Source: Alphaproteobacteria bacterium (GTDB lineage: Bacteria > Pseudomonadota > Alphaproteobacteria > SP197). From it: a stretch of DNA of 64,000 nt. The notes beneath the pieces were generated by a model, which worked only from the letters and a program-made list of their open reading frames with translations, was not told the origin of the DNA and ran no database searches. Position 1 is the first letter of the stretch. Each line of letters opens with the position of its first letter. Position numbers and translations under genes: made by a program. Below, piece after piece: positions 21,900 through 46,563 of this stretch. The stretch lies in contig OZ243917.1 of the NCBI GenBank assembly GCA_965213815.1, positions 1,626,832 through 1,690,831 on the forward strand, read 5' to 3'.

Positions 21900-23030
21900 C
21901 TAGTCTTGGGTTCCAAACCACGCACCGACGAAGACGCCCTCACTGCCGTCCGCTTCGGTCCATTCGGCTCCGGCGGTCCCTGCAACCAGGCGCGGCTCGC
22001 CAGTTTGAACTGGGACATTCGAGAATTGCCCGCCCCAGGAACCGTCCGTATGCGTAACGGTGCGGTCATCGCCGTCCAGCCTCACATTCCGGTTACGGAA
22101 GCTCCCATCCGGGTTGATATCCGTCTCTTCGAGACGCAGGCGCACCGGGACCGTTTCATCGCCGAATTCCGATGCGTTGCCGTTTGCGTCCGTCGCAACG
22201 CCCCAAATGGTGACGCCTTCCATGCAGCCGAGGCATCCCGATATGGTGTTCGACGTGAAGTTCGCAGTCAGTTGCGCATCCGTGTCGAATTCCCCGACTT
22301 CCGTGGACCGGCCCGCCTCATGGGCGTAAACGCCGCCCGCCCGGCCCGAATAGTGAGCCGTGACAAGGCGCGGGAGTGTGGGGGCCACACCGGAAAGCTC
22401 CGGCCCATCCACGAAGGCCCCGATGTCCGCCCCGGTGATTTCCAGCGTGTCGGTCCGGCCCTCAAGATGCATCCAGTAGCCGCCGGCCAGATAGTCGGTT
22501 GGGTCTGCGTTGTTCCAGTTCGTATAGACCGCCGCGACGGAAAGGGTTGTAGCGGTCGATGTCAGAAGCGAATCGCCCCGGTAAAAATAGTCGGGCAAAA
22601 CCGGAGGATGGGATTCGCGCCCTATCTGGTCGGTTGCGCCGTCGAAAGCGAGCTGGCTTCCGTCCGTCCGCTGGACCGTCACACGCACATTGCGGCCGTC
22701 GAATGAGGTGGAGGCGGCGTCGCCGCTTACGCCCGCGACCGAGCCAGCGTTCGACGATTGCGTGACGCTGCCGAAACTCGGAAGGTTGGTCGCCGCCTGC
22801 GCGCCGGCATTGCGCGCCGCGCTGCCATTCGCGGATCGGGCATCGGTAAGCGTGGGGCTATCATCGGTAAGCGTGGGGCTATCATCGGTAAGCGTGGGGC
22901 TATACGGCCCGTCGTTCGAGGCAGTTCCTCCGCCACCCCCACCACCGCAGGCGGCAAGAGTCAGCAGGGCGAGTGTTGCGGTAACAGCCAGCGTCGCGGC
23001 TCGTGCCGATCGTATATCCAAGGATGTCAT
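21900..23030 (-). CDS. Surface lipoprotein SLP1. Lipobox LLTLAAC followed by a poly-Gly linker, three in-frame SPTLTDD repeats, and a TbpB/fHbp-like C-terminal handle-barrel (...GVFVGAWFGTQD). Start is ATG 23030 with an AGGAG RBS.
   Basis: Signal peptide and lipobox. C-terminal similarity to the other surface lipoproteins in this window. Confidence 0.65.
   Translation of the reverse strand: MTSLDIRSARAATLAVTATLALLTLAACGGGGGGGTASNDGPYSPTLTDDSPTLTDDSPTLTDARSANGSAARNAGAQAATNLPSFGSVTQSSNAGSVAGVSGDAASTSFDGRNVRVTVQRTDGSQLAFDGATDQIGRESHPPVLPDYFYRGDSLLTSTATTLSVAAVYTNWNNADPTDYLAGGYWMHLEGRTDTLEITGADIGAFVDGPELSGVAPTLPRLVTAHYSGRAGGVYAHEAGRSTEVGEFDTDAQLTANFTSNTISGCLGCMEGVTIWGVATDANGNASEFGDETVPVRLRLEETDINPDGSFRNRNVRLDGDDRTVTHTDGSWGGQFSNVPVQTGEPRLVAGTAGAEWTEADGSEGVFVGAWFGTQD
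22842..22904 (-). repeat. 3 x 21-bp perfect or near-perfect tandem repeat (ATCGGTAAGCGTGGGGCTATC) inside SLP1. It encodes (SPTLTDD)x3. A C5/G5 run lies in the adjacent poly-Gly codons.
   Basis: Read directly from the sequence. Confidence 0.8.
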
Positions 23031-23337
23031 ACGTTGGTTTCTCCTGATTTGCATTTCGTACCGGCACGGGAATGGTGCCGGGCCATGCGACAACCACGCA
23101 GAAAATGCGAAGAAGTCCCGCCTATTCGCGCCAAGCGATGGTGGCCAAACCGTCGCCGGATCGGTGCTGTTGTATTCAGCAGGTGACCCGACCTCGGGTC
23201 TCTGCTGGTTGTCGCAGGGGCGAGTGTGAGGCTTCGCGAAGGTGTAGGCAAGCCTGCGGCTGGGAATATTCAGGAGCATCCCACGCTGTTTTCGTTTGAC
23301 GCAGTGAGTTTCCTGTGGAGGGTAGCGCGCCTTTTGC

Positions 23338-25236
23338 TTGGGCGCTTTTCCTTCGGTCTGTGCATGGTTGACTGGAAATCCCACGGTGATGGCGTTACAA
23401 GGGCGCCTGATGGATATCCGCCCGCACATGCTGCCCCCCGACCTGACGGAGGTGCCGGAAGGATTTTGCCTTTCGGAAGTCGAGGTGCGTCTGGCGACGT
23501 CGGACGAGCGCACGCTGTGGGATGCGCTGATGGTGGATCGGCACTATCTCGGGTTCAATCGCTTCACGGGCCGCGGTCTGCGCTACATTGCCGTGTGGCG
23601 GAGGCAGTGGCTGGCGCTGGGCGGCTGGCAGGTTGCCGCTCTCAAGTGCAGGCCGCGTGACCGCTGGATCGGCTGGAAGGCTGACGAGCAGTTCCGGCGC
23701 CTCCACATGGTTGCCAACAACACCCGGTGCCTGGTTCTGGCCGAGCCCGGTGTTATGGGGAACCTCGCTTCCTTCTTCATGTCCCGGATGACGCGGCGTC
23801 TTTGCGACGACTGGATGGACATCCATGGCCACGGCCTGTTGATCGCAGAATCGTTCGTCGACCCGTCGCGTTTCGTCGGCTCCATGTACAGGGCCTGCGG
23901 CTGGCAGGATCTGGGCAACACCAAGGGCTTTGCCCGGTGCAACGGCCACTACACGGACCCGCACGACAAGCCGAAGCGGATCCTGGTGCATGGCCTGCGC
24001 CGCGACGCCAGGCGTCTTCTGGCCCGGCCCGAGCCTTTGCCGGCGGACGTCATGCCGCCGCCGGATCCGGCCCTGGCCCCGCGCGACCTTGCGTCCATGC
24101 GCTCGCTCTACGAGGAACTGGCGTCGGTGGACGACTTCCGGCGCAAGCAGGGCATGAAGCACACGGTGGCCTGTGTGCTGACGCTGATCATCCTCGCCAC
24201 CTTCGCCAACATGAAGGGCTGCATGGCCGTGGCGCAGTTCGCACGGGCGCTGTCGCAAGAGGAACTCGAGGCCATCGGCGCCTGGAAGCGCCAGACCACC
24301 GGCCTTTGTGAGCCGGTCTCCAAGTCCACCGTCCACCGGGTCCTGCAATCCCTCGATCCCGAGGCTCTGGAGGACGTGCTGAAACGCTATGCCAGGCCCC
24401 GGTTTCCCCTGGCCCGGGCCCTGGCCGCCGACGGCAAGCGCATCCGCGGCGCCAACCGCAACGGCACCGGCCATCACGAGACTGTGTCCCTCGTCGATCA
24501 CATGACCGGAGCGCCGGTGGCCCTGCTCGGCTATGCCGAGCAGGGCGGCGAGATCGCGGCAACGCACGACCTTCTGGAACGCAGCGCCATCGCCGGCAAG
24601 GTGATCACCATCGATGCCCTGCACACAACCCGCGCCACCGCCCAGATGATCACCAGGCGCTTTTGTGCCGACTACATGATGACGGTCAAGGGCAACGCGC
24701 CGGAGACCTTCGCCCTGCTCGAAAGCATCGACTGGCAGCGCGACCGCACAGGGCACCACAAGGAGGACCTCGACAAGGCCCATGGCCGGCTTGAGCAGCG
24801 TCAGATCGATGTCATGACGCCTCTCAAGGGTCTGATCAACTATCCCGGCATCCGGCAGATCGCACGCGTCAGGCGGACCCGCGAACAACTCGGACCCAAG
24901 GCCGACGGAACGGTCAGCAACGAGTGCGCCTATGTCATCACCTCCCTTGGCGAAGAGGACGCCTCGCCGGCACAACTGCTGGCCCTCAATCGCGGGCACT
25001 GGTGTGTGGAAAATGCGAACCATCGAACCCGCGACACGCTTCTCGACGAAGACGCATGCCTGACCCGAACCAGGCACGGACCGCTGAACCGCGCCAGTCT
25101 CAACAACATCGCGCTTGCCGTCGTGTTCGCCATCCACCAGCCCGGTGAGGGGCCCGTCACCACCATGCGGCGCCTGCAACTCGATCGCGGAGCCGCCATC
25201 CGCGCCGTGTGCGAGCCTCCAGCCATCCCCGGCTGA
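23338..25236 (+). CDS. ISAs1-family (IS4-like, DDE_Tnp_1 plus DDE_Tnp_1_assoc) transposase with a long N-terminal extension (DUF4338-like).
   Basis: Motifs HTVACVLTLIILATFANMKGCMAVAQF and GHWCVENANHRTRDTLLDEDA. Confidence 0.65.
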   Translation: MGAFPSVCAWLTGNPTVMALQGRLMDIRPHMLPPDLTEVPEGFCLSEVEVRLATSDERTLWDALMVDRHYLGFNRFTGRGLRYIAVWRRQWLALGGWQVAALKCRPRDRWIGWKADEQFRRLHMVANNTRCLVLAEPGVMGNLASFFMSRMTRRLCDDWMDIHGHGLLIAESFVDPSRFVGSMYRACGWQDLGNTKGFARCNGHYTDPHDKPKRILVHGLRRDARRLLARPEPLPADVMPPPDPALAPRDLASMRSLYEELASVDDFRRKQGMKHTVACVLTLIILATFANMKGCMAVAQFARALSQEELEAIGAWKRQTTGLCEPVSKSTVHRVLQSLDPEALEDVLKRYARPRFPLARALAADGKRIRGANRNGTGHHETVSLVDHMTGAPVALLGYAEQGGEIAATHDLLERSAIAGKVITIDALHTTRATAQMITRRFCADYMMTVKGNAPETFALLESIDWQRDRTGHHKEDLDKAHGRLEQRQIDVMTPLKGLINYPGIRQIARVRRTREQLGPKADGTVSNECAYVITSLGEEDASPAQLLALNRGHWCVENANHRTRDTLLDEDACLTRTRHGPLNRASLNNIALAVVFAIHQPGEGPVTTMRRLQLDRGAAIRAVCEPPAIPG

Positions 25237-25472
25237 CCCTCCTTACCCACCAGTCACGACCGTCGCGGCGCCCATCGCTGTACGTGGGCGCCGGCGTGCG
25301 GCTGTCACGTCCGCAAAGGACGGGCCGAAGCCGCTCACGACGCCGCGAATCGGGTCAACCCCGGCAAGCAGACCGCACGTCAAATCGCCGAATCACACTC
25401 GGCGCAACCCAGTCCGGTCCTCATTCGCCCAGCGTGGGAAAGTCCTGTGGGAACATTGTATGGCCGCGGCAA

Positions 25473-25695
25473 TGATCGAGCCAACCTGTTCAGCCGCCTC
25501 GACGAGATGGGCGTCGGCTACGTGGGCGTAGCTCGCCGTGGTGCGGTGGCGGCGGTGCCAGAGCAGCTTGCCCACGAGGGGCAGGTTCTCGCCCGCCATG
25601 ACCGCCTGGCTGGCCGCCGTGTGGCGCAGATCGTGCAAGCGGAGCCTATCGAGAGACTCTTGCGCTGTAGCGATTTTCAGCGCCTCGGCCTGCCG
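25473..25695 (-). pseudogene. C-terminal catalytic fragment of a tyrosine integrase (LHDLRHT...LLGH...TTASYAHV). It belongs to the same family as the two intact integrases at 54.5-56.8 kb.
   Basis: R-H-R-Y region motifs. It continues the fragment at 27715-28094 across an IS insertion. Confidence 0.6.
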
Positions 25696-27714
25696 GGCTG
25701 ACTCCGCCCATCGGGTGCCAGCACCACCCGGCACCTCCCCTGACCCCGCTTCGGGCACCTGAATCGATGCTTCACGACTGATTTCGAGCGCTGTTGAGGG
25801 CCGGCGGTGACATCCGGACGAGCGGAAGCGTTCCGCTCAGACGGGTCTCGCGGAACGCCGGGCTTCAGCGGCAGCCTGGATCAGCTGGTATCGGGCAGGG
25901 TGCCGGTCCGCACCAGACTCCGCATCAGGTGGGGCTGGCGCTCCTCGACGCTGGCATGAGCCAGCGCCATCATCACCACGAGGGCGAGATTGACCCGGGC
26001 CTTCATCTTGCTCAAGCCCCGGATCGTGTGGTGCTCGAAGCCGAAGCTCTGATCAAGACGGCCATTGATTCTCTCGAGTGCGGACCGTCCCCGGTAGCAG
26101 CGGGCCCAGGTGAGTGAACTGCGGGGTGTCGGGGTGAAGATCCGGCGGTCGAGGTCGAGAGGCACCCGGACGATGCGGCCGTATCCTTGTGTGTGGCACT
26201 CACCGGCCGCCTCACAGACCTTCCGACCCTGGCAGTTGAAGCCATAAGCTGCCGCCGGACAGCGGTACTTGAGAGTTCCTCTCGTCGCCTCGAAGCCCTG
26301 GAAGGCCAGATCCCGTTCGGCGCCGGTCTCGGGACAGATGCAGCGGACCTCGCCACGTTCGGTATAGACCATGGTATCGGCCTTCCCGGCATCGAGCGGC
26401 CGACTGATCCGCTTCTTCGGGTCATGACCGGGCTCCGCCTTCTCGTGGCGCCACATCAGGCGGGTATCGATGATCGGGCGGACCTGCCAGGTCTCCCACA
26501 AGGTCCTCTTGAGAGAACCGCTGTCGTAGCCCCGGTCGGCACTCATGTCCCTGCAGCGTCGCGCCAGGTCCGGACTTTCCTCGAACAACGCCGGCAGCAT
26601 CCCTTCAAGGGTCTTGACCTCCGAGGCCGAGGCCTTCGTCAGCACCGCCGCGACGGGGATCTCATGGGTCGTGTCGGCGATCAGATGAAGAGTATAGCCG
26701 AACCAACTCTTGACCTTCGTCCAGACCTTGCCTCCGGCATTCACGCCCGAGGTCTCGTGCTTGCCCCAGTCCGCGTCCTGGTCCGACGTCGTGCCCGTCG
26801 TCGTGTTGACCACGCCCGTCGATTGGCTCGCGATGGCCTTGCCATCGCAGCCAAGGTGGACGCCGAAGTCGGGTATGAGATCCATCAGTCGGTGCCGCAG
26901 GTCGACGAGCATCTGTGACAGCAGTCCCTCCTCTTCCTCGACCCTGAGCAGGGACACGACAAAGCGTGACACATTGTAGCTCGAGGGGATCGACGAACGC
27001 TCCTTGCCAGCGATGACGTGGATCACTCCGGTCTGCGGATCCTGTCGAAGCCTGCGCTTGCCCCTCAAGGGCACCGGATGGAAGCCGCAGGCATCGAGCA
27101 AGGTCGGATTGCGGTTGAGTTCTCTCAACAGCGCCTCGATCGAGGGATGCTGGAAGACGATGCCGGCCACCAGGGCCCGCCACATGGCTTCGAGGGGATA
27201 GTCGTTGCGGCCCTTGCCGCGCCGTCTCTCGAGAGCCGCGATGAGGGCGTCGTCGGGCAGGGAATCGAGGACCCGTCGCAGGCGTTCGATGTCGGGAAGG
27301 CTCTCGACGTCGGACCAGGAGAAGAGTAAGGGTGTCTGTGTCGTCATGGCGCTGGTCGTACCTCCTTGCCGAGGTGGGGTTTGCACTCGAGACATAGCCC
27401 ATGACGACGCCTTTCGTCAATTTATTCCGTCAGTTAATACACCTCCGCACCATTCAGGAGGACGCCGTATGGTCACGTACGGCAGGCGCGGCGAGGAGAG
27501 GCTGTCGCCGGGCCGATGCCGGTTCAGCCCGCCTGCAGAGGCTGCCGGCGCGACGTGAGCAGGGCCCTGGGGTGGAATCCCGCCAGATGAGCCAGGGCCG
27601 GAACAGACAATCGTGTCTTCTCAGAAGGTTACAGGACGTCGATTGGGGGAAAACAAATTCCGACCCCCAACTTCCATCTATACTCTCAACGAGTTAGAAA
27701 CAACGCAGAGGTCT
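25654..27714 (-). mobile_element. IS5/IS1182-like insertion sequence, about 2.06 kb, flanked by an 8-bp direct repeat CTATCGAG (25646-25653 and 27715-27722). It splits the integrase gene between its LDR codons.
   Basis: The 8-bp target duplication and the reconstructed integrase reading frame across the insertion. Imperfect IRs AGAC..TGCG.TGT. Confidence 0.6.
25881..27347 (-). CDS. Transposase with an InsH-type N-terminal domain (DUF772) and a DDE domain. Likely IS5 or IS1182 family.
   Basis: N-terminal motif LPDIERLRRVLDSLPDDAL...GRNDYPLEAMWRALVAGIVFQHPSIEAL. Confidence 0.6.
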   Translation of the reverse strand: MTTQTPLLFSWSDVESLPDIERLRRVLDSLPDDALIAALERRRGKGRNDYPLEAMWRALVAGIVFQHPSIEALLRELNRNPTLLDACGFHPVPLRGKRRLRQDPQTGVIHVIAGKERSSIPSSYNVSRFVVSLLRVEEEEGLLSQMLVDLRHRLMDLIPDFGVHLGCDGKAIASQSTGVVNTTTGTTSDQDADWGKHETSGVNAGGKVWTKVKSWFGYTLHLIADTTHEIPVAAVLTKASASEVKTLEGMLPALFEESPDLARRCRDMSADRGYDSGSLKRTLWETWQVRPIIDTRLMWRHEKAEPGHDPKKRISRPLDAGKADTMVYTERGEVRCICPETGAERDLAFQGFEATRGTLKYRCPAAAYGFNCQGRKVCEAAGECHTQGYGRIVRVPLDLDRRIFTPTPRSSLTWARCYRGRSALERINGRLDQSFGFEHHTIRGLSKMKARVNLALVVMMALAHASVEERQPHLMRSLVRTGTLPDTS

Positions 27715-28094
27715 CTATCGAGCTTCGCATCTGCGCACGCTGTCCGCCAGCAGTTCGACAGTATCCAGATACCCCGGCCCTCGGCGTGGCGCGGAAACAG
27801 GAACGCGTCGGGATCGCGCGCGCCGGGCAGCGCCTCAATGAGCGCCCGCGCGGCCTCGCCGAGCGGCACCGCGCGCGGGCCGGTCTTCGAGTCTTCGAGT
27901 GTGATGGCGTCCCCGCCAATGTTGCGCCAGCGCAGATCGAGCACTTCGATGCGCCGGCAGCCGGTGAGTGCCAGCAGCCGGATCGCCGCGACGGTCTCGG
28001 GCCATTGGAAGCGCGCGCCCGAGCCGGGCCAGCTCGTCCATGTCGAGGAAGCGGGCGACCTGCTTCCTCGGGTTCTTCGCGATACCGAGACAGG
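27715..28094 (-). pseudogene. Middle portion of the same tyrosine integrase (GIAKNPRKQVARFLDMDELARLG ... LRWRNIGGDAITLEDSKTGPRAVPLGEAA...). It is interrupted upstream by ISAzo13 at 28095-28097.
   Basis: Hand translation of the minus strand. P4-type integrase core motifs. Confidence 0.6.
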
Positions 28095-28096
28095 GG

Positions 28097-29406
28097 TTAG
28101 GGCTCTCGCCTGAATAACTTGTCCTTTTTGGTGGGATCAGTTATCCCTGCTACCATGGATGGTATGGTTGACACGCTACGCTCCAAGTTTGTGGGGTTGC
28201 GCCCGGTTCTTGACGAACGCGCCCGGCGTTTGTGGGCGGCGACGGAAGCGCGCGCCATCGGGCGCGGCGGCATTGCGAGGGTGGCTGAGGCGACGGGCAT
28301 GTCGCGGGGCACTGTTCGGGCTGGTCTGAAGGAGCTTGCGTCCGGCGTGGTTGCCGAGGCTTCTGGCGAGGCGCCATCGGGGCGTGTGCGTCGACCGGGC
28401 GCCGGGCGCACGCGTGTGACGGAACTGGACCCGGACCTTGTGGTGGCGCTGGAGCGTCAGCTTGAGCCGGTGACGCGCGGTGATCCGGAGAGCCCATTGC
28501 GCTGGACATGCAACAGCGCCGCGCATCTGGCGGACCGGCTTAGGGCCGAGGGTCACCCGGTCAGCGAGCGCACGGTGAACCGGCAGTTGCATGCACTGGG
28601 ATACAGCCTTCAAGCCAACGCCAAGACACTGGAGGGGCGCCAGCATCCGGACCGGGATGCGCAGTTCCGCTGCATCGACCGCCGGGTGCGCGCCTTCCAG
28701 AGGATGGGCCAGCCCGTGGTGTCGGTTGATACCAAGAAGAAGGAAATCGTTGGCCAGTACCGCAATGGCGGCCGTGAATGGCGCCCCAAGGGTGAGCCTG
28801 AGGCCGTGAAGGTGCATGACTTCCCCGATCCGGACCTGGGCAAGGCCATTCCTTACGGGGTGTATGACCTCACCGCCAACGCCGGCTGGGTCAGCGTCGG
28901 CATCGACCACGACACGGCGACATTCGCCGTCGAGACCCTGCGCCGCTGGTGGCAGCACATGGGACACCCGCTCTACCCCGATGCCAGGCGCCTGCTCATC
29001 ACCGCCGACGGCGGCGGCTCCAACAGCAGCCGCAACCGGTTGTGGAAGCTCGAACTCCAGAAACTCGCCGATGAACTCGGACTGACCGTCTCGGTCGCCC
29101 ACTTCCCGCCCGGTACCAGCAAGTGGAACAAGATCGAACACCGCATGTTCTGCCACATCACACAGGACTGGCGCGGCAGGCCCCTCGTCAGCTACCAGGT
29201 GTCGTCAAGCTGATCGCAGCCACTACGACAGGCGCCGGCCTCATCGTACACTCAGACCTCGATGGCAACTCCTATCCGCTCGGGGTCAAGGTCACCGACA
29301 ATCAGATGGAAGACCTTGCCATACGAAGAAACCCCTTCCACGGCGAGTGGAACTACAGTCTGTCACCACGAACATAACGTACAATCTATTTTGGCGAGAG
29401 GCCTTA
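28097..29406 (+). mobile_element. ISAzo13-family insertion sequence, about 1.31 kb, with 14-bp imperfect IRs TTAGGGCTCTCGCC / GGCGAGAGGCCTTA.
   Basis: IRs read from the sequence. Internal ISAzo13-type transposase. Confidence 0.7.
28119..29377 (+). pseudogene. ISAzo13-family transposase. A frameshift near 29210 splits it into 28119..29213 and 29123..29377 (...VVKLIAATTTGAGLIVHSDLDGNSYPLGVKVTDNQMEDLAIRRNPFHGEWNYSL).
   Basis: Family motifs (LDERARRLWAA; C-terminal NPFHGEWNY). Two overlapping ORFs in the track. Confidence 0.6.
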
Positions 29407-30378
29407 GCGCAGCAGTCCCGACGCATACCCGCAAGCGATGCCAACCCTCCGCCAACCGGCACGCCGCGGAGGCGCTTGCCACGAAAACCCCACAATGGAA
29501 GCACCAAGGGAAGAAGACGGATACCTCGCCACAGATATGATCATGCCTTCACGAAACCCGATGCCGTGTCCAAAACCGTGCCTTACAGCCAATGTTCCGC
29601 GTTTTGCAAAACCGCCGATAGACCGGCCGGAACGACACGCCACGGCACTCCCGGTGCCGCGCGACGCCATCGCAGCCGGCTGCCATCATGCAGTCCGTCT
29701 TTCCGCCCGTTCAAACTTCCGTTGCGTCATCCGGCCCCTGACCGAGCTCACGCCCGGGACCAGTGCCCGCGTCACCAACGTCGCGCTTGCACTGATCATC
29801 CTCAAAGAACGGGTTCGTTTCGGTAGCCCGGTTTCCGTTGACCCTGAGCGTCTCGATCCTGGCGTCCAAGATGACTGTCAGCGCTGACGAACCGTGCCGT
29901 CAGGCCATCATTCGAGCGAATCTGGCTGCCGCCCACACCGGCAATCGGGACGCTGGCAGTGTATCCGTGACGGCCGGGTCGCCAGGATCGGGTTCGTGCG
30001 GACAGCCCTGCCACAGGCATGGACGACTCCGAGACCCTGCATTAGGTTTGCGCTGTGCTGGTGCAGATGGAAATCAACGGATAACCGGCTCTCAAAGTGC
30101 GCAGGCTCGCGATCCGTCGATCAGCTTCGATGCCGTTGACAGGGCTGGCTCGGTGGTGCCGCGACTCAAGTGACGTTTCATGCCTCGGGTGATCGGCCGG
30201 GGCGGCCATGATAGTTCGGTCTCCAGGATTGCGCACGGGTAGAAGCAGGCAATGACCCAGACAAGATTCGTGACAATGACCACCCTTGCGACCTGCCTCC
30301 TAACTCGTTGCGTCATGTGGTGGAGGAGGCGGTGGTGGTCCCGGCCCCGGTTCCGTCCTGGACAGACCACCAACAGTC

Positions 30379-32589: not shown

Positions 32590-32593
32590 TCCG

Positions 32594-36251: not shown

Positions 36252-37625
36252 TCAGAACTGCTGGACGAAGCGCAACTCGCCCGAGGTTCGACTGTAGCCG
36301 TGGAGCTGGGCGTTACTTTCGCGGGTCTCACGGACGACCGCGAGTTCGGGGCTGAACCCCATCAGGTTCAGTGCCCGGTTGTAGGTGGAAAGCCTGTACG
36401 ACCGGGTACGGTCCTCGCGCGGGCCGTTGTCGGCAACGAAGGGAAACCAGCCCCGTTCGTAGTCCGTCCAGCGCATCTCCGCACTGCCGCCGACCGTAAA
36501 GCCCAGGGGAAGGGCAACGGTGATGCCCGTGCCGAGCCACCGGCCACGGTGGCGCTCGTGCCGGGCCTTCGGTCGCTGCTGCGCGTAGCCGGCGGAGACA
36601 TCGGCCCGCACCGTCGGCATGACCACCCACGAGCCGCGCAGGGTCGCATCCCAGACCGGACCATCCAGGCGGGTCCGGGTGCGGTAGCGACGGTCGTGCC
36701 ACGACGTCTGGGCGCTGGCGGTCACCCGCGGGCCCAGCCGGTGGGCGGCCTCGATGCGGACGCCCAGGTCGTGGTAGTCGGGCGTGCTGGACCAGCGCTG
36801 CCGAGCGCTCGCCAAAAGGCTCGCCTCTGTCGAGGCGTCCAGAAGCCAGCGCGGACCGAGATGGAGGGCAACGAAGTGCTGGTCGAAGTCGGAGCGGGCG
36901 TACTCTCGCCGAGATGCCTGCGCGCCGGCGCGGATGCGCAGACTGTCGGAGACCGGCGCCTGGTACTCCGCCCCACCCCAGAACGACAGACCGATGCCCG
37001 ACCTGGTCAGTTCCTCTGCGTCCCGCTCGAACGGAAGGCCGTAGATGATGATGGTGCGCTCGTTTGACGTGCCGCCAATGTTGGTGTCCGGTGCCACCGC
37101 GAAACCCAGATTGAAGCTCCAGCGTTTGCGGGCACGAATCTCGGCAAGAAAGGCGTTGACGTTGCTGGCCACCGCTTCGGGCGGCTCGCCCGCAAGTACG
37201 TGCTCGAAATGCCGCAGGGCGAGTTCGTCCTCACCTTTCAGGAAGAAGGCGCGGGCCAACTCCAGGCGCACCCGCACCAAGTTCGGATCGTGAACCAGCA
37301 TGGTGTGGAAGGCGGCGATCGCCTCATTCAGCAAAGCGTCGCGCTCCTCCTCGGTACGCCCGGGGCGCTGAGCCGCCCCGACGGCGGCGAGGCCGTAGAG
37401 AAAGAGCGTATTGGGTTCGACCGCTTCCCCGAGGAGCAGGGGCTGCAAAAGGCCAAAAGCATCTTCGAACCGTCCGGCGTCGATCAACTCCTGCGGGCTT
37501 GCCGCCTCGACCGCGTCCGCGGCGTCGGAGGACTGCGCCCCGGCGTGGTGAGCGGAGAGCAGGGCGAAGAGGAGACAGGCGGCGAGCGCCAAGGTGCGGT
37601 AGGGCGATGCGGAAGCAGAGAGCAT
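36252..37625 (-). CDS. Slam (surface lipoprotein assembly modulator)-type outer-membrane translocator. Signal peptide, periplasmic TPR region, and a C-terminal DUF560 14-strand barrel (...RALNLMGFSPELAVVRETRESNAQLHGYSRTSGELRFVQQF). Start is ATG 37625 with an AAGAGG RBS.
   Basis: Domain architecture and C-terminal motif. It is co-located with TbpB-like lipoproteins. Confidence 0.75.
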   Translation of the reverse strand: MLSASASPYRTLALAACLLFALLSAHHAGAQSSDAADAVEAASPQELIDAGRFEDAFGLLQPLLLGEAVEPNTLFLYGLAAVGAAQRPGRTEEERDALLNEAIAAFHTMLVHDPNLVRVRLELARAFFLKGEDELALRHFEHVLAGEPPEAVASNVNAFLAEIRARKRWSFNLGFAVAPDTNIGGTSNERTIIIYGLPFERDAEELTRSGIGLSFWGGAEYQAPVSDSLRIRAGAQASRREYARSDFDQHFVALHLGPRWLLDASTEASLLASARQRWSSTPDYHDLGVRIEAAHRLGPRVTASAQTSWHDRRYRTRTRLDGPVWDATLRGSWVVMPTVRADVSAGYAQQRPKARHERHRGRWLGTGITVALPLGFTVGGSAEMRWTDYERGWFPFVADNGPREDRTRSYRLSTYNRALNLMGFSPELAVVRETRESNAQLHGYSRTSGELRFVQQF

Positions 37626-37639: not shown

Positions 37640-39620
37640 GGAACGGCGACATCGGTGACATCACAACGAGGTGATCAGGATAGGGAGGAGAGCCGCGCGG
37701 CTCCACTTCTCTCACACCACCGAGTGTACGGGTCTGTACCCGGCAGTTCAACGGATTTGAGCTGTGGCATGGTTCGCGAACGGGACGAGGCCAGGCCGGG
37801 TGAAGAAGGCGTTGAGCAGTGCACAGAAAAGCACGGGGCCGTTGCTGAGCCACCATGGACCATGGGCACCGCCGGCAGTTTTCGTTACCAGATGCTTGTT
37901 GACACTGAGGCCGCGCAACGCAACGAAGCGTGTGCGTCCGCGCTTCCTTTGCCGCCAGACGATGGCACGAAGCCTCCGACTGACCCATCGGTCGAGGCGG
38001 TGCGGCACCAAGGGGTTTCGCAGAAGTCGAAGTAGCCCGGCGTTCCGACGAGGTAGCGAGTCAGCTCCGTAACGAAGTGAACGAGACTGACGCTCCTCAA
38101 ACAGCGCGTCAGTGCCCGGATCCGCGTCTTGAGCCGGGCAAGCTCCGGCTGCGGCGTGATGCGCCGCCTGGGTGTCCGCTCGGCCGTGAAGCCGAAGCCC
38201 AGTGATGCCTGCGCCGACGCCCGGCCAACAGCGCTCTTGTCTGTGTTCATCGTCAGCTTGAGCCGCCGGGCGAGGAAGTCGGTCACGCTCGCCATGACTC
38301 GCTCGCCCGCTGAGACAACAGGTAGATGCTGCAGTCGTCGGCGCAGCGCACAAAGCGGTGGCCGCGCTTCTCCAACTCCTTGTCCAGAACGTCGAGCATC
38401 AGATTCGACAGAATCAGCGAGAGCGGCCCAACCTGCGGGACTCCCTCGGTCATTGGGCCAACAGCCCACCTTCCAGAACGCTCGCGGTCAGGAAGTCGCG
38501 GATCAGCCTGATCAAGCGTTTGTCGGCCACCAGACCCATCAGAACGTCGTGATTGACCCGGTCGAAGAACTTTTCGAGATCAAGATCGACCACGATACCG
38601 AAGACCGCGCTGATATGATCCTGCGCGCACTTGACCGCTTGATGGGCTGAGCGTCCGGGCCAGAACCCGTGGCTCGCGTCTGAGAGGGTGGGAGCCCAGG
38701 TCCCCCTGCAGCACCTGCATCACCGCCTGCTGGATGAAGCGGTCGAGCACCGTTGGTACACCGAGCGGACGAATCCCGCCTGATGCCTTCGGTATCTGTA
38801 AACGCCGCACCGGCTTCGGGGTGTAGGCACCATCAAGAAGCCGGGACGTGATCTCAGGCCAATGGCTCTTCAGGTGGTCATCCAAGTCATCGACGGTCAC
38901 ATCGTCGATACTGGGCACCCCTTGTTGCGGTGGACACGCGCCAGCGCCTTCCGCAAATTGCCGGGCTGGATCACCGCCTCCATCGACGGTCCCTGCCCGG
39001 CCGCAGGGCGTTCGGGCTCGACGCGCGATGCAGACTTCGGTCCCCTGGCGTCCGACGCTCCGGGCTTCACCCTTCGCCGCCGACACCAAGGCCAGTTCCA
39101 GCTGGATTTTCTGTCGCCGGGGCCTCATGAGCGTGCCGTCCTGGCAACCCTGTCCATCGTTCAGGCCTTCACCAGAGAGCCGGCTACTAAGCCTTCTGCT
39201 GACTTCTGCGCCGCAATCACGGCCCTTGCGGAACCGCTCAGCCGGGAACTTCCGAACACGGCGCAGACCCCAAGGTTGAGACCAACCGCCTTCACCGCAC
39301 TCCCGTCGGATTTGCCACCCCGACCCTTGATGGCTCTGGGCTTCGCAATCATTGGCCCGCTCGTCCGGCCGGGTAGGCCTCGTATCCGGTTCTTGTTCAT
39401 CGGATCGCGGCTTTGCTCCACACTTCCTTCAATCACCGCCTCGCGACGACGCCCTTGCGTTTCGCTGATCCTTCGCCGCCATCGGGCTGGGATAGAGGAC
39501 TTGCATCTCCAAGCTGTCGATCATGCTCGGCACACAAAGAGAGGGTGGCACGCAGTGCCACCCTCCTCAAGTCCGACCCAAGTAGTCTGGAACCTGTCGC
39601 AAGGTCCCAGACCAATCAGA
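37640..39620 (-). mobile_element. Degenerate group II intron between SLP3 and the Slam gene. The RT/maturase is broken into at least three frames (38580..39128, 37885..38469, 37748..38353), and the YADD region is lost.
   Basis: RT motifs LLDGAYTPKPVRRLQIPKASGGIRPLGVPT, FLARRLKLTMNTDKSAV and RLRAIVWRQRKRGRTRFVALRGLSV in separate frames. Confidence 0.6.
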
Positions 39621-39629
39621 CGGTAACTC

Positions 39630-41215
39630 CTATTCTTCTTCCTTGACCCTAGCGCCGAAGGCACCGGCCACCGAGCCATCGCTGAACACGGCACCAAACT
39701 CGCCGACCACGGAGCCCGGATGGGGAGCGACACCTTCGACGGCCGTCACGTCCCCATGGAACGTCGCGCTGAAATCGCCGACATCGTCGTCGCCCACCAT
39801 GGTGTTGCCGGACGCTGTGCCTTCAGCCGCATCGATATCACCATCCAGAGCCGCAGACCAACTGTTCTCCTCATCGCCCGACAACATGAAGTTGCTGACC
39901 ATGCCAGTGAGAGTGTTCAGCAGGTTCTCAGCAATGGTGCCCGTGTCGTCACCATCGGAAACCGGAACCTGACCGAAGGTTGCCTTCAGGTTGACGGTTG
40001 CATGGAAGTCGCCGGAACTACGGTCAATGACGTCACCCGTGGAGGAATCATACTCATTGTTCATCGTGTACACGCCAACTGCGCCACCGCTGTACTCGGC
40101 GCTTCCCGTGACACTGGCAACACTTCCGCTTGTCTGAGCCGACGAACCGGCGAAGGTCTCGACCTCGTTATACGTGACCATATCGTCTGCATCCTCTGTC
40201 TTCTGAAGCCAGAAGCCATAGTGCAGGTAGTCATACTGCGGCTGAGGTGACTCGGCACCCATGGCAGGGGTGAACACCCAACCGGTGCCAACTGCGGAGA
40301 TCTCTCCCATTGCATCATATGTGACTTGGCATCGACTAGTACCGGTGCACCGATAGGTGCCCGGTGCGCCGTTGTAGGTGCCTTCGGTTTCGAAGGCCTC
40401 GTCCATATCCGCAGTATCACTATCGTCAAAGGCATAGGTCAGATCACCAGCCCCACTGGACGAAAACCCACTCGCCATGATCTGCGCGACATTGGCAGTT
40501 ATGACATTCAGAGCCGTGTAGTCGTTGGTCATGTTACCGTCACCATCGGTGCCGTCCATGTTTTCATCAAGGTCACGGGCGTTCAGCATCTGAGGCATAT
40601 CTGTTGTTGTCGATGTGCCGTCATCAGATACGGTTACGAGTTCGAAGTCCGCGAACGACACCATTGTTGGTGCGTCACGGTCATTGTAGACGATCGCGAC
40701 TTCTGTCACCACGTTTCCGTCGTCGTCAGCATCATGCATGCGAGTGTGCATGGTGCGGCCATCCATCATGTCCTCAGCCAAATCGAACATGACATCATCT
40801 TTGTCGGTAGCTTCCACGGTGATCGAAACCTTCGTGCCATCTTCATCAATGGCAAGGGTGTAACCTATCACCGGCGTGCCATCGGTCATGGAGCCGCCAA
40901 GCCCAGCATCCGCATGCATTTCAGTGGTCCCCAGACCTCCCTGGGCGGCCTCCGCGGCGATGGCCGTTGCTTTCGTGCCAGCCGCCTTGGTTGTCGCAGC
41001 TAACTCCGCGGCCTCTTCTGCGGCCACATCCTCGGCGCTCGTGCAGGATCCGTCGGTTTCATAGCGGCCCATCGCCATCTCGCATTCTTGTTGCGCGGTC
41101 AGCTCTGGCTCCGGCTCCGGCTCCGGCATAGCCGTCTTGGACGACCCGCCACCGCACGCAGCAAGCCCGCCCGACAGGGCCACGACTGCCGCAAGTGCGG
41201 TAAGTTTGTTTAACG
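39630..41215 (-). CDS. Surface lipoprotein SLP3, a paralogue of SLP2. The body is intact (TbpB-like C-terminus ...GSVAGAFGARVKEEE). The signal-peptide codons (TLNKLTALAAVVALSGGLAAC) are present, but no ATG/GTG/TTG start codon or RBS precedes them (TGCACGTTAAAC in place of ATGACCAGATTGAAC). It is a silent copy or a start-codon pseudogene.
   Basis: Hand translation upstream of track ORF 39630..41183. An in-frame stop lies 14 codons upstream, with no start codon between. Confidence 0.6.
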
Positions 41216-41356
41216 TGCAAGTGGCTTCTGTGGTAGCGTCCGTAGCCGATGGCCTTCAACAGGGGATCCTTCGGCGGACGCGCCATGTCCGCACCATCGC
41301 CAGAAGGCCTTCGACAGTCGGTCGGGAATGCAAGTTCCCGGCAATCCGGAGTTGTC

Positions 41357-42298
41357 ATGACCATCCCATCCGTCCCTGCCCTCGAGGCTCTCCCAGCGGA
41401 GCGCAATCCGGCGATCGTTTACCTCGCAAGTCTGACTGCCGGTGAGGGACGGCGCTCGATGGCCTCGACGCTCTCTCAGCTCGCCGCCATGCTCGGTTGT
41501 AGTGATGCTGCGTCCTGCCCCTGGCACGAGCTGCGCCATCAGCACGTCGCTGCCCTTCGTGCTGTGCTGGCCGAGCGCTACGCGCCAGCCTCGGCGAACA
41601 AGGCCCTCGCCGCGATCCGCGGTGTACTCCGGGCGGCCTGGAGGCTGGAACTGATCCCGACCGAGTCCTATCACCGCGCCATCGACGTGCCGCTCGTCCG
41701 CGGCGCGCGCCTGCCTGCCGGCCGGTCCCTCGAGCCCGCCGAGATCCGGGCGCTGTTTTCCGCTTGTGCCGATGGCACCCCGGCCGGCGCCCGCGACGCC
41801 GCCGCCTTCGCCCTGCTGTTCGGCTGCGGCCTGCGCCGCGCCGAAGCGGTTGCAGTGGAGGTTGCCGACCACCACGCAGACACTGGCGCGATTCGAGTCA
41901 TCGGCAAGGGCAACCGCGAGCGAATCGTCTACGCTACCGGCGGTGCGAAGGCAGCCCTCGATGCTTGGCTGGCTCACCGCGGAGTCGCCGTGGCCGGCCC
42001 GATTCTCGCTCCGGTGTCGCACACCGGCGCCGTCGATGTCGGTCGCGGCATCACCCCGAATTCGCTGATGATGCGTCTGCGCAAGCGGTCCGAACAAGCC
42101 GGAATTGCCGCGTGCTCGCCGCACGACCTCCGCCGCTCGTTCGTGTCGGCAGCCCTTGAGGCCGGAGCCGATCTTGCCATGGTCCAGGCTCTTGCAGGCC
42201 ACGCCTCCCCGACCACAACCGCGCGTTACGACCGCCGCCCTGAATCTGCCAAGGCTGCCGCTGCGCGTCTTGTCCACGTTCCGTTTGCTGCGGTGTGA
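41357..42298 (+). CDS. Tyrosine site-specific recombinase, XerC/XerD-like (about 313 aa; RRAEAV ... HDLRRSF ... TTARYDR). It is divergent from SLP3.
   Basis: R-K-H-R-H-Y signature residues in the 349-aa ORF. The start is probably MTIPSVP. Confidence 0.7.
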   Translation: MTIPSVPALEALPAERNPAIVYLASLTAGEGRRSMASTLSQLAAMLGCSDAASCPWHELRHQHVAALRAVLAERYAPASANKALAAIRGVLRAAWRLELIPTESYHRAIDVPLVRGARLPAGRSLEPAEIRALFSACADGTPAGARDAAAFALLFGCGLRRAEAVAVEVADHHADTGAIRVIGKGNRERIVYATGGAKAALDAWLAHRGVAVAGPILAPVSHTGAVDVGRGITPNSLMMRLRKRSEQAGIAACSPHDLRRSFVSAALEAGADLAMVQALAGHASPTTTARYDRRPESAKAAAARLVHVPFAAV

Positions 42299-42641
42299 CG
42301 ATCAATGCACAGTGCTTGTCCGGTTGTCGTTCAGCACTTGTCTTGCCGACACGTCCGGAGTGCGCTGAAGGTCATCATTTTCTCGCGATCCGCTGCGTTG
42401 GAGACGACCAGGATGAAATCGGTGGCCTCTTGATGAAGTCGAGGCCCGTGGGTCCTCGATGGCCATGCGGTCACATCGCCGCGGGCCAGCCCCAGTCGAA
42501 GTTGGTAGGGGCTTGAACTATCCCAGCAGGACTTCAACGAGGTGTTGCTGCGGCTGCGCCTCTTGTCCTCCCCGGCTTGGCCGATGAACGGGCCACCGCG
42601 CGCCGGGTTCTGGGTGCGGATGGATCAGACGTATTACCGGG

Positions 42642-43694
42642 TCATTCCTGCAGCCGCCATCTCAAGGCGAGGTGGAGACCGATGTCGGGCGCGGACTGGC
42701 CGATGCCGTCGTCCTCCGTGACCGCGGCGTCGAGCACGAGGCGCTCGGTCAGCCGTAATGTGCCACCCATGCCCAGAATTACCGCGGTGTCCGAAAGCTC
42801 AGCCAGGTTGGAGGCGCCGTAGGGCGAGGAATGGGCGTCGATCTGTGCCGTCAGATGTAGATCCTCGAGCACCCGCCAAGTCACGCCGAGACGGCCAAAG
42901 GCGATGAACCGGCCGCCTGTTGCGGCGAGGCCTTCCGGTGCGGCGCTCGTGAGCGCACCGAGTGTCGCCGCGTACAGCCAGCGGCGCGAGATTTCGGATC
43001 CGGGAAAAGCGCCCGAAGTCTCCGCCCACGCTGATGCCGAAAATCTCCCCGAACCGGTCAGTGACTCCGGATCCCCGGTCGGAAGCTTCGCCATCGCACG
43101 CACCACCATGCCATCGTTCCGGAACGGCGGAGAGGCCAGCGCATAGCCCACCCCGAGGCTCGCGTCCCCCAGTGAAAGGACGTCGCGGTCTACGTCAGCA
43201 CGAGTTCCCATGCCGTCGGCATAGAGAAACGCTAGCTGGTCGCGTGGTGCCTTGTCTCGCTCGCCTTGGGGCAGGCTGAAAGTATCGTGCCAGCCCTCGA
43301 TAAATCCGTCGAAGACGCCTGCACTGTGTGCAACCGCCGGAATCTCGAGAAAGTACTCCCAGCCACCTCCGAGCCCGTGGCGCAGCGACAGTGCCTGGCG
43401 GTACGTCTCTCCGTCCATAACGACCCGTTCATCACCGACATAGTCGGCACGCATGTGCGACGCCATGTCAACAGAAGTGACCACTTCCCATGCGCCTTCG
43501 GGCATCACCCGGGCTCCAGACGAAGCTGGCACCCCATAGAGGAGATGGAACGGGTTGAGGTTCACCAGGCGCAGTGGTGTCGCTACACCGTGCTCCTCTG
43601 CGGAAACGGTCTGAGTGGCAGCCGACAGGATGCATAAGAGGAGCGCGTAGGAGAAGCCACGGCGACGGTGGAGGTAATCCATGATAGTGGTCAT
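42642..43694 (-). CDS. Predicted outer-membrane protein with a signal peptide (possibly DUF3187-like).
   Basis: Signal peptide MTTIMDYLHRRRGFSYALLLCILSAATQTVSA. Beta-rich composition. Family assignment uncertain. Confidence 0.45.
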   Translation of the reverse strand: MTTIMDYLHRRRGFSYALLLCILSAATQTVSAEEHGVATPLRLVNLNPFHLLYGVPASSGARVMPEGAWEVVTSVDMASHMRADYVGDERVVMDGETYRQALSLRHGLGGGWEYFLEIPAVAHSAGVFDGFIEGWHDTFSLPQGERDKAPRDQLAFLYADGMGTRADVDRDVLSLGDASLGVGYALASPPFRNDGMVVRAMAKLPTGDPESLTGSGRFSASAWAETSGAFPGSEISRRWLYAATLGALTSAAPEGLAATGGRFIAFGRLGVTWRVLEDLHLTAQIDAHSSPYGASNLAELSDTAVILGMGGTLRLTERLVLDAAVTEDDGIGQSAPDIGLHLALRWRLQE

Positions 43695-44103
43695 GCCGGT
43701 TCCTTTCATCGAGACTCCGCCTCCCTTGTCAATCGACGGGGCAGGACCGAAAGGCCAGCGTCACCCACCGGGTAATCCTCCGTCAACCGCCCTGGAGATC
43801 AACCCCGGCGATCGGGTGCCTGCGGCGAGGGAAAGGGCCCATGACGAAATGTGCGAGGACATCTGCTGTCGTCTATCGTGCGGAAGCCGGTGTTGCAAAT
43901 GACGCGTCACGCTTCGGTGCCATATCGACTCCGGTGCGTCCCGCTGTTGTCCGACGCTGAACCCGCTCGGGTCCGCCCGACGAATGTCCGTGCCTGTGTT
44001 TTGTAGCGCTGCGTATACCGTTGAAACCCAGCTGCACCGCTTGTCGTAACGTAACTGCTCACCCCTCCCTGGGCCACAGACGCGGCATATCCCTGGTGTC
44101 GGC

Positions 44104-44850: not shown

Positions 44851-45063
44851 GAACCTGGAGAACTTCCTGGTCGAGTTCTGCGTCGGCTCGTAGCATGCAC
44901 GATAGGCATCGAAGGATCACATGATCTGCGCTGCTGCATTGTCCCAATTTCCGATCCGCGTCTCGCGGCGATCCAGCTCCGTGAGCGCCTGCCAACAATG
45001 AATCTCCCTTCGCGAGAGTAGTGCCTCTCTGGCCGTGACGCGGCCAGGGAGCGATTGGTGGTC

Positions 45064-46563
45064 CTACCGCAACTCGCCTCCAAAGGCGGCGGTGAGATCG
45101 TCGCGCTCCAGAACACCAGCTACAGCCTCGTGCCCTGGTCCGAAGAATCCGCCGTCCAGAACACCGGAGTCGTCGTTTGGTGCAGGGCGGTAATTCCCGA
45201 AGGTATCGCCATAACCTGTGTTCACTTGGATCGTGTAGTGCAGGTCGCCATCGCCCCACATAGTTCCTGTTCCCGGGTCCGATGGTTGACCTGCCCAGGA
45301 CTCCAGGCTCGTGAAGTCCACAGTTCCGTCAAGGTCAGCAAGATCAAGGGACATATCTGCATCGCCCATGACCGATCGGGCTGAGGGTGTGAAACCGACC
45401 AGCATTCCCGCCCAGCTCGCACTCCCCGACAGTCGGGGGTTGTCCCATATCCACGTCAGAGGCTCTGGACCCACCGCCCATGGCATGGCGCGGCCGTTCA
45501 TCAGACGCACGCCGAAGAGCGTGACATCCTCGGAGAGCAGACTGTCCGGACGATTCGGCACTGCCAACCCACCGAAGATATGGGTTGCCGTGTTGTCCCA
45601 CGGCCCGAGGTCGGATGCCAGTCCGACCGAAGTCGTGCCCGGTTGGAGTCTGCCGTAGGTGGCCAGCAACATCTCTTGGTCCAGCTGCGACAGCACGAAC
45701 GGGAGGCTGTTGTAGCTGTATGACATGATCGTGTCCGTGCGCCCGTAGAGTGGGACCGGATGCTCGCGGCCGAGGGAATGCAGAATCTCATGGACGAGCG
45801 TGTCCTCCATCTGGATCGCGCCACTCTCGACGTGTAGGTGCTGAGGGTGCGCGGGGTTGATCCAGATCGGAGCGGACCGGATTGAACCGTCCGGATTGGG
45901 ATCCCTTCTCCACGATGCGCCAAGCGTTGCCATGCTCGTTTGTTCCTGCCAAGTGGCAGGCCATTGGCTGCGGGGCGCGAACGTGATGAATATCTCGCCC
46001 AGGGCTTCGGTATTGCTACCTGCTGGCGCAGGCTGGGGGTCGAAGCCCACCTGCCAATCGCCCGGCAGGGCCGTGTTGATCATCTGGACCGCGTACTGCA
46101 CAGCCCCGATCAGATCGTCGGGAGTGCCGTGGGCCACCCTCACGGTTGGCGGCGCGATCCAGCGATCCAGATAACCCACGCCCTCCCGTATGTCGTCCTG
46201 CAATTCCGAAAGAAGGGTGCTGCGTCCGACGCCAGGACTGTCGATCCCATAGACAATCTCGATGCCGTCATATGTGCCGACAGCCGCGCCGACGGCCGAT
46301 CCGGGACGGATAATCGCATCGCCGCCGATGAAGTAGTAACCGGGCAAATCACTCCCCTCGATTACGGAAAGGTCGGTGTAGGGGAAGCCGGTTGGCGATT
46401 GACTGGCGGCCGTTGGAACGGTCGGTTTCATCGACTGTGGGGGCGCAACGGGCGTCGTGGGCCCCGTCGTCGACATGTTCATGGCGGACATGCCGCCTCC
46501 GCCACCTCCACAAGAGGCAATCAACAGCGTGGCGACGAAAGCCGCGATCATTCGCAATGTCAT
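45064..46563 (-). CDS. Surface lipoprotein with a metzincin zinc-metallopeptidase domain (HEILHSLGREH = HExxHxxGxxH; Met-turn IMSY). Lipobox LLIASC followed by poly-Gly. C-terminal SLP-type barrel (...LTAAFGGELR).
   Basis: Motifs in the 499-aa ORF. Confidence 0.65.
   Translation of the reverse strand: MTLRMIAAFVATLLIASCGGGGGGMSAMNMSTTGPTTPVAPPQSMKPTVPTAASQSPTGFPYTDLSVIEGSDLPGYYFIGGDAIIRPGSAVGAAVGTYDGIEIVYGIDSPGVGRSTLLSELQDDIREGVGYLDRWIAPPTVRVAHGTPDDLIGAVQYAVQMINTALPGDWQVGFDPQPAPAGSNTEALGEIFITFAPRSQWPATWQEQTSMATLGASWRRDPNPDGSIRSAPIWINPAHPQHLHVESGAIQMEDTLVHEILHSLGREHPVPLYGRTDTIMSYSYNSLPFVLSQLDQEMLLATYGRLQPGTTSVGLASDLGPWDNTATHIFGGLAVPNRPDSLLSEDVTLFGVRLMNGRAMPWAVGPEPLTWIWDNPRLSGSASWAGMLVGFTPSARSVMGDADMSLDLADLDGTVDFTSLESWAGQPSDPGTGTMWGDGDLHYTIQVNTGYGDTFGNYRPAPNDDSGVLDGGFFGPGHEAVAGVLERDDLTAAFGGELR

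Follow-up and report, generated by a model that had tools for sequence, protein, structure and literature searches.

The 64-kb stretch of DNA analysed here, referred to in the following as the window, carries what is probably a genuine but partly broken Slam (type 11) outer-membrane secretion locus, situated in a mobile-element-rich stretch of a high-GC alphaproteobacterium. The system itself is of a known kind; its apparently new part is a metzincin effector domain borne on a predicted Slam-cargo barrel. The domain identities, the fold of the metzincin lipoprotein, the family links and the gene neighbourhoods discussed below were computed here. An earlier note on this DNA had described a Slam translocator among four TbpB-like lipoproteins, together with a NalP-like subtilisin autotransporter, as a whole module. 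The core of this description was right, its observation being confirmed in part and its interpretation supported in part. Hereby, all six genes were found at or near the positions it gave, but two of them, 30252-32589 and 39630-41215, are no intact open reading frames (ORFs). Since the subtilisin gene is frameshifted within its signal peptide and the third lipoprotein gene has lost its start, the module is not intact as had been claimed and can work only in part in this genome. The genes concerned are the following, with the four lipoproteins designated L1 to L4:

21900-23030, minus strand: L1, lipoprotein of 376 aa with lipobox LAAC and GGGGGGG, three SPTLTDD repeats, handle DYLAGGYW and predicted barrel; insertion sequence (IS) elements on both flanks
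30252-32589, plus strand: subtilisin (S8) lipoprotein gene with a C-terminal beta-rich domain ending LAWRFLW; the longest intact ORF, 30379-32589, lacks a signal peptide
33401-34966, plus strand: L2, lipoprotein of 521 aa with lipobox LAAC and GGGSSS, Ala-rich helical N-region, handle YLYFGWW and predicted barrel
36252-37625, minus strand: Slam / type 11 secretion system (T11SS) outer-membrane protein of 457 aa with signal peptide, putative TPR-like N-domain and DUF560 barrel; gene intact
39630-41210, minus strand: L3, an L2 paralogue of the same family, 5'-truncated
45064-46563, minus strand: L4, lipoprotein of 499 aa with lipobox LIASC and GGGGGG, disordered linker, metzincin domain, handle and predicted barrel

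The 457-aa protein matches the Pfam hidden Markov model (HMM) SlipAM (PF04575) with E=1.8e-21 and 77.4 bits (cutoff 22), residues 169-454 being aligned to positions 1-285 of the 288 model positions. As this match runs from end to end of the model, the Slam identity proposed earlier stands: the HMM search places the protein in DUF560/Slam above cutoff and over nearly the full model. At residues ~99-152, sub-threshold matches to TPR_Slam (PF24575, 21.4 bits, cutoff 35.2) and TPR_19 (21.9 bits, cutoff 25) are seen. L3 lies upstream of the Slam gene on the same strand, with L1, L2 and L4 nearby. A regular-expression scan over six frames located leaders that combine a lipobox with a Gly/Ser run exactly five times in the window, namely in L1, the S8 gene, L2, L3 and L4, all around the Slam gene and nowhere else. 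The common lipobox and poly-Gly leader ascribed to the four lipoproteins was found for all of them (L1 LTLAAC, L2 VGLAAC, L4 LLIASC, each followed by a Gly/Ser run), with the reservation that L3 retains its lipobox in a truncated leader.

L4 is the gene that sets the locus apart. It comprises an MMP-like (matrix metalloproteinase-like) metzincin at residues ~110-320, a handle at ~326-366 and an 8-stranded barrel at ~381-498. The claim of a full HExxHxxGxxH metzincin domain is borne out by the zinc site HEILHSLGREH, the following TIMSY, which contains the TIM Met-turn, and the metzincin fold. The predicted structure shows a confident MMP-like metzincin fused to a handle and an 8-stranded barrel as in hemophilin, NHBA, HpuA, fHbp and TbpB, the model containing a single handle-barrel. 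A word-indexed search gave 82 clusters of homologues, and the family is furthermore present at 30 loci in species-representative genomes. In an alignment of 44 homologues, from which the following family statistics were derived, the lipobox Cys, the three zinc-binding His, the catalytic Glu and a C-terminal block (GSASWxGxLLGF ... GTGTMWGDGDL ... ERDDLTAAFG) are kept. H258, H262 and H268 are invariant, E259 is conserved in at least 90%, and the zinc motif is intact in 41 of the 44. L4 by itself does not reach the gathering score of Peptidase_M10 (PF00413; E=0.19, 12 bits, gathering score 24); nine of the 44 homologues match this model at E<=0.01, and the family profile aligns with MMP-14 and many other MMPs over the zinc site, the Met-turn and the next helix. 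The cargo model slam_lipo (NF041636) is matched by 26 of the 44 (best 2.6e-8). The chances seem about even that L4 stands for a widespread family whose T11SS cargo effector domain is a catalytically competent MMP-like protease.

Compared to the MMP catalytic domain (MEROPS M10A), serralysin and astacin, L4 has neither a cysteine-switch propeptide, the sole Cys of the mature protein being the lipidated one, nor hemopexin or RTX domains, and it is fused to a predicted Slam-cargo barrel. Hemophilin/HphA and the NHBA C-domain, which are likewise single handle-barrel cargo, are only 15-19% identical to L4; in contrast to them, L4 is lipidated, has no haem-binding clamp and bears a protease of ~210 residues as N-terminal effector. 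If L4 is such a protease, it would probably act on host or matrix proteins. L4-family metzincin-barrel lipoproteins are found in MAGs (metagenome-assembled genomes) labelled Nitrospirales, Ca. Binatia, Tectimicrobiota and Thermodesulfobacteriota and in a Dehalococcoidia bin (loci L003-L029). T11SS are usually ascribed to Proteobacteria, and these labels all fall outside that phylum. The family appears to have spread horizontally among symbionts of several phyla.

Since single-sequence Pfam scans, both of whole proteins and of C-terminal pieces, detected no barrel domain, structure prediction and family-level profiles were needed for the barrel assignments. At E<=0.01, Pfam gave nothing in L2, L3 and L4, and in L1 just an unrelated sub-threshold Gp10_C match; slam_lipo found nothing in L2 or L3. 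Pairwise BLASTP among the four lipoproteins aligned almost nothing past the leaders, and the L2-family profile retrieved from the PDB sequences coiled-coil and BamD-leader noise only. The L1 family counts 545 representatives at E<1e-3; among 44 of its members, 22 match slam_lipo (best 1e-8), eight TbpB_B_D and two FHBP_C. Aligned by hhalign, the L1 and L2 families match along 181 columns that begin at the YL(x)xGxW handle motif and end at the C-terminus (98.1%, E=6.8e-14), and the L2 family, comprising at least 238 clusters, matches L3 (99.9%, E=5e-31). The L1-family HMM also detects L2 and L3 in the window. Between the L1 and L4 families, hhalign gave only a short out-of-register match. The C-termini read VGAWFGTQD in L1, VGAFGAHVD in L2, AGAFGARVKEEE in L3 and TAAFGGELR in L4. 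Hence, handle and barrel are assigned directly for L4, by its structural model, through family-level HMMs for L1 and transitively for L2 and L3, so that all four remain predicted barrels. The description of these barrels as TbpB-like holds for a single handle-barrel unit. The bilobed architecture of TbpB was seen in none of the four, none matches the TbpB_A or TbpB_C domain, and the N-regions are a metzincin, a repeat linker or an Ala-rich helix; the term is therefore limited here to that unit. Disordered-repeat and helical-stalk architectures are known among predicted T11SS cargo (PMC12282271), and the repeat N-region of L1 and the Ala-rich helical N-region of L2 resemble these two.

The gene neighbourhoods in other genomes tie the lipoprotein families to Slam. 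Exact-match look-ups of Slam and L4 in a contig index found none. A full-length Slam orthologue of 93% identity is present in the metagenome contigs L031/L032. In all seven metagenome loci with relatives of the window Slam (47-93% identity; L031-L037), an L2/L3- or L1-family lipoprotein gene adjoins the Slam gene, and in five of them the lipoprotein gene lies immediately upstream of Slam on the same strand. Together with loci L030 and L041, this gives nine loci examined in which an L1- or L2-family gene adjoins Slam; L2-family genes stand directly beside it in L030, L031-L035 and L041. In L030, from a Paracoccaceae MAG, the order is L2-like gene, Slam, S8 gene and L4-like fragment, and in L031/L032 it is S8 gene, L3-like gene, intron, Slam, DUF3187 gene, Slam fragments and second S8 gene. 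Locus L041 holds a co-directional and intact row of an L2-like gene, Slam, an L1-like gene, a 309-aa lipoprotein ending YVGAFGAMRR and an L4-like metzincin with HEMLHSLGLQGH. Slam-adjacent lipoproteins with a common 8-stranded barrel have been described, and such pairing was used to define Slam cargo (PMC5449769). For T11SS cargo, a barrel at the C-terminus and an N-terminal effector that varies between proteins have been described, and T11SS genes are reported alongside transposases and mobile islands (PMC12282271).

Some of these loci show further duplication. At 6112-11372 of L031, the intron-remnant segment is tandemly doubled between the L3-like gene and Slam, and 12646-16583 contains pieces of another Slam gene and, on the opposite strand, a further S8 gene that is divergent; duplicated modules seem to be common in this lineage. 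Three clustered L2-family paralogues (one on the plus and two on the minus strand) occupy 10001-16001 of L042, where no Slam gene is found within 10 kb and where IS66 fragments and a RES/Xre toxin-antitoxin pair adjoin.

From these data we infer surface export by Slam, protease activity together with its substrates, and any relationship of the S8 protease to the cargo. According to the proposed mechanism, which follows what is established for Slam, Sec would export L1, L2 and L4, and after lipidation of their lipobox cysteine the Lol pathway would take them to the outer membrane. The Slam barrel would then transfer them to the surface, recognising the common C-terminal handle and 8-stranded barrel, with the Gly/Ser run behind the cysteine acting as a flexible tether. 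L4 would thereby become a surface-tethered MMP-like zinc endopeptidase, whereas L1 and L2 would display non-enzymatic N-regions, a Pro/Thr/Asp repeat in L1 and an Ala-rich helical stalk in L2. In its intact form the S8 protease might insert itself by way of a C-terminal outer-membrane barrel and, by analogy to NalP, trim or release surface lipoproteins. As in the known Slam/T11SS systems (Neisseria Slam1/2 with TbpB, LbpB, fHbp and HpuA, Acinetobacter HphA, Pasteurella PmSLP), the window holds a DUF560 barrel with a putative TPR-like N-domain and adjoining lipoprotein genes, whose products combine lipobox, flexible linker, variable N-terminal effector and a predicted C-terminal handle with 8-stranded barrel. 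The link to transposases and mobile islands is shared as well (PMC12282271). Unlike in the known systems, the host is not an animal pathogen but a marine alphaproteobacterium of high GC content, represented by a MAG. In addition, one of the predicted cargo proteins has a catalytic metzincin domain, and the cargo HMMs remain below threshold.

A first alternative concerns the S8 protease, namely that it is no NalP-type autotransporter and has no functional tie to the Slam cargo, being instead a highly mobile lipoprotein protease with another C-terminal anchor that came to lie here by chance. We consider this less likely than not. The S8 domain matches PF00082 with E=4.5e-28 and 98.8 bits, and D50, H163, N293 and S383 are invariant in 40 homologues, so that the Asp/His/Ser triad is intact. 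SphB1 of Bordetella is, like NalP, a lipidated S8 autotransporter, and Ssp and fusolisin are non-lipidated ones. In structure, the protease domain comes closest to the autotransporter passengers Ssp and fusolisin. NalP itself has a 12-stranded barrel, releases LbpB and NHBA and is phase-variable (PMC5472700). At the C-terminus, the beta-rich domain of ~200-290 residues has 12 predicted strands in succession and ends in an aromatic residue; a scan for hydrophobic alternation was beta-strand-like and not decisive. In prediction, the domain looks like an outer-membrane barrel. Favouring the alternative, neither the protein nor its family matches the autotransporter models PF03797 and TIGR01414, no PDB autotransporter beta-domain matches in sequence, and Foldseek yields no significant match. 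Moreover, the family (~780 aa, lipidated) is 60-88% identical over hundreds of clusters, including MAGs labelled Nitrospira, Deltaproteobacteria and Chloroflexi, in unrelated contexts, two of which were examined and lack Slam nearby. This conservation, far above that of the neighbouring lipoproteins, suggests recent wide horizontal spread or mis-binning. Set against this are the structural proximity to Ssp and fusolisin, the 12 strands with their final aromatic residue, the lipobox and poly-Gly leader in cargo style, and the adjacency of an S8 gene to a lipoprotein-Slam pair in three independent loci (the window, L030 and L031/L032).

The likeness to NalP extends to the leader as seen in S8 homologues, the subtilisin with intact triad, the C-terminal beta-rich domain with final aromatic residue and the Slam-cargo neighbours; NalP, too, is switched off by frameshifts. 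It ends at the autotransporter beta-domain, for which S8 lacks an HMM or PDB match, at the frameshift, which lies outside any homopolymer tract, and at the S8 family as a whole, which is unusually conserved, widely transferred and often unlinked to Slam. Hence, of the S8 autotransporter proposed for 30252-32589, the subtilase and the lipobox/poly-Gly style were recovered, whereas a continuous ORF and an autotransporter HMM match were not; the NalP analogy is reasonable from the three co-localised loci and finds no support beyond gene neighbourhood. As the length of 30252-32589 is not a multiple of three, it is not one ORF. The leader MTQTRFVTMTTLATCLL lies in one frame, and LVASCGGGGGGGPGPG with the protease in the next, the lipobox being at ~30307. 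Compared to L031, with 88% nucleotide identity, the gene contains one extra base near 30302, which puts the beginning of the signal peptide out of frame with the lipobox and all that follows. Intact homologues carry the leader in frame (MTQTRFVA..CLLLVASCGGGGGGGPGPG), and the window gene is either a pseudogene or the product of an assembly indel. Phase variation of the NalP kind by this frameshift was rejected, the extra base lying in CTAACT, where there is no homopolymer tract.

According to a second alternative, the locus is a decayed remnant, that is, a scrambled and largely non-functional leftover amid mobile elements in which S8 and L3 are dead and in which an intron remnant and an inversion have uncoupled Slam from the upstream lipoprotein promoter. 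Further features of the locus are:

19345-21576, plus strand: transposase, Transposase_29 (Pfam)
23338-25236, plus strand: protein of 632 aa with a DruA-like N-domain (Druantia protein DruA, E=1.6e-20), DDE_Tnp_1_assoc and DDE_Tnp_1 (Pfam)
25881-27395, minus strand: transposase, DDE_Tnp_1 (Pfam)
28119-29213, plus strand: transposase, ISAzo13-type (Pfam)
33412-33485, plus strand: left copy of a leader segment of ~75 nucleotides (nt) common to L2 and L3; inverted right copy at 41137-41210
38580-39450, minus strand: group II intron remnant between L3 and Slam (Rfam RF02001, 115 bits; RF01998, 44 bits)
41249-42298, plus strand: Xer-like tyrosine recombinase (Phage_integrase, E=1.7e-24; NCBIfam XerC and XerD sub-threshold at ~124 bits)
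42642-43709, minus strand: predicted DUF3187 outer-membrane protein with signal peptide (Pfam PF11383, E=2.5e-42)

The four transposase genes (19345-29213) enclose L1 and part it from the S8 gene; together with the intron remnant and the recombinase they break the gene row. The intron remnant retains the 5' domains D1-D4 at 39164-39450 and a reverse-transcriptase ORF fragment at 38580-39128, recognised by an RT-like motif in the translation; domains D5/D6 were not found within 38580-39450. No ATG, GTG or TTG is found in the L3 frame upstream of the GTG at 41183, and a start at this GTG would leave 9 residues ahead of the lipobox Cys. By BLASTN and alignment, its homology to the L031 orthologue starts at codon 5 (AACAAACTT, 41210), the first four codons and the promoter being gone, and L3 is probably silent or a pseudogene. 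Elsewhere in the window a TrwC relaxase, HipA, a second integrase and two more introns point in the direction of decay, as do, in the relative L031, the Slam fragments and a frameshifted DUF3187 gene. On the other hand, Slam, L1, L2, L4 and the DUF3187 protein are complete, their signal peptides are intact and their catalytic or structural residues conserved, L2 is positioned behind a conserved promoter and leader, and the indel in S8 could be an error of long-read assembly. We therefore rate decay of the whole locus as rather unlikely and keep to a Slam locus that is broken in part. The frameshifted DUF3187 paralogue of L031 lies at 11656-12656, directly downstream of Slam (L031/L032), and the DUF3187 protein may recur as a partner in this Slam lineage.

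A third alternative takes L2 and L3 to be an expression-site/silent-cassette pair that the adjacent tyrosine recombinase inverts between the shared leaders, providing programmed surface variation in a Slam system. Such an inversion would resemble vsa/HvsR of Mycoplasma pulmonis, a switch for variable surface lipoproteins. In favour of it, the promoter, the ribosome binding site and the first four codons of L2 are orthologous to the 5' end of the L3-like gene of L031, L2 now occupying the expression site downstream of the S8 gene, while L3 retains codon 5 onward only, in inverted orientation. Relative to L031, the block of L3 body, intron and Slam (41210 to 36254) lies in the opposite orientation. 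The alignment, and BLASTN of L031 against the window, showed ~26 identical bases at the 5' end of the two leader copies, at the junction, and the recombinase gene starts 39 nt from the truncation point of L3 and runs divergently from it. A palindrome, CCGCA-CT-TGCGG, at 33437-33448 and 41174-41185 lies inside the identical stretch; it is signal-peptide-coding and possibly due to chance. An integron-like reading of the junction between recombinase and L3 was dropped, as the integron-integrase models scored far below threshold. Apart from the identical stretch the case for a switch weakens: the leaders are just ~92% identical, the window is full of unrelated rearrangements, and one event of homologous recombination, or an inserted element, accounts for the same facts. 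Because neither L031 nor L041 has a second cassette or a recombinase by the locus (L031 shows weak integrase matches ~8 kb from Slam), we regard the switch as improbable. The arrangement goes back either to a single recombination of the paralogous leaders or to such an inversion switch; if it were the latter, programmed surface variation would exist within a Slam system.

Several results weigh against reading the window as a Slam cargo locus. In addition to the 1-nt insertion in the signal peptide of S8 and the lost start codon and promoter of L3, none of the four lipoproteins reaches the trusted cutoff of a curated model. L4 alone scores E=1e-4 and 22.6 bits against slam_lipo and L1 alone E=0.0047 and 17.2 bits (cutoff 80 for both), the C-terminus of L4 is sub-threshold for TbpB_B_D (PF01298; E=0.03, 15.2 bits, cutoff 26), and no Pfam or NCBIfam barrel model matches any of 44 L2-family members. 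A direct hhalign comparison of the L2 and L4 C-termini is weak (E=0.004, 9% probability). With respect to gene neighbourhood, Slam lies within 10 kb of an L4-family gene in one of the 30 species-representative genome loci, the other 29 being without detectable Slam. The closest L4 orthologues (86% and 76% identity) have only the gene itself in common with the window, the flanks not being syntenic. No Slam lies near the two further S8 homologues that were examined, which come from a Nitrospira MAG and a 2.75-Mb contig. That the lipoproteins are common ones of the outer membrane, facing the periplasm or exported in some other way, with the barrel as a general fold and no Slam targeting signal, as the distance of most L4-family genes from Slam and the cargo models below cutoff might indicate, is nevertheless very improbable given the Slam adjacency of L1- and L2-family genes over the nine Slam loci, and the known Slam cargo fHbp and NHBA are, as far as is known, also unlinked to Slam genes.

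If Slam indeed exports the L4 family, the T11SS would also be a route for tethering proteases to the cell surface, with MMP-like proteases as the first class of enzyme that Slam delivers. The Slam/T11SS cargo known so far act by binding, their ligands being iron or haem, complement regulators or glycans. The earlier remark that a protease as a Slam cargo domain is unusual agrees with the published catalogue of about ten T11SS cargo architectures, none of which is enzymatic (PMC12282271). A metzincin effector on a Slam-cargo barrel is absent among the cargo architectures in PMC5449769, PMC8406197 and PMC12282271, and full-text search gave no paper in which T11SS occurs together with metzincins or zinc metalloproteases. 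The L4 family and the accompanying S8 protease come mainly from marine host-associated MAGs, some of them labelled non-Proteobacteria, a distribution that bears on the reach of the T11SS and on how symbionts might process host matrix. The L4, L2 and S8 proteins are recorded in identical form from a single 3.85-Mb contig. The closest relatives of the source are MAGs labelled Alphaproteobacteria, and many family members stem from bins with sponge-study style names or from sponge-typical taxa (Ca. Porisulfidus, Tectimicrobiota, Binatia), Porisulfidus being tied to a sponge metagenome in one paper. The source is a marine alphaproteobacterial MAG and, as we infer, probably a sponge-associated one.

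Among the annotated ORFs of the window there is no TonB-dependent receptor and no haem or iron gene, another difference from the known Slam/T11SS systems. Just beyond L4, where the GC content falls from ~0.62 to ~0.58, a cytosolic-type sulfotransferase (Sulfotransfer_1, E=1.8e-29) is encoded at 47684-48586 on the minus strand. Two tandem, apparently identical group II introns occupy 1766-5747 on the plus strand with the same Rfam scores in both copies; their D1-D4 domains lie at 1766-1908 and 3781-3923, their D5/D6 domains at 3577-3732 and 5592-5747, and each contains a 544-aa ORF (1934-3568 and 3949-5583). Further genes are a HipA toxin kinase (8509-9771, minus strand), a TrwC-type relaxase (16711-18849, plus strand) and a phage-type integrase with Arm-binding domain (54458-55642, plus strand). 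Taken as a whole, the window has the appearance of an integrative/conjugative or plasticity region, not of core chromosome.

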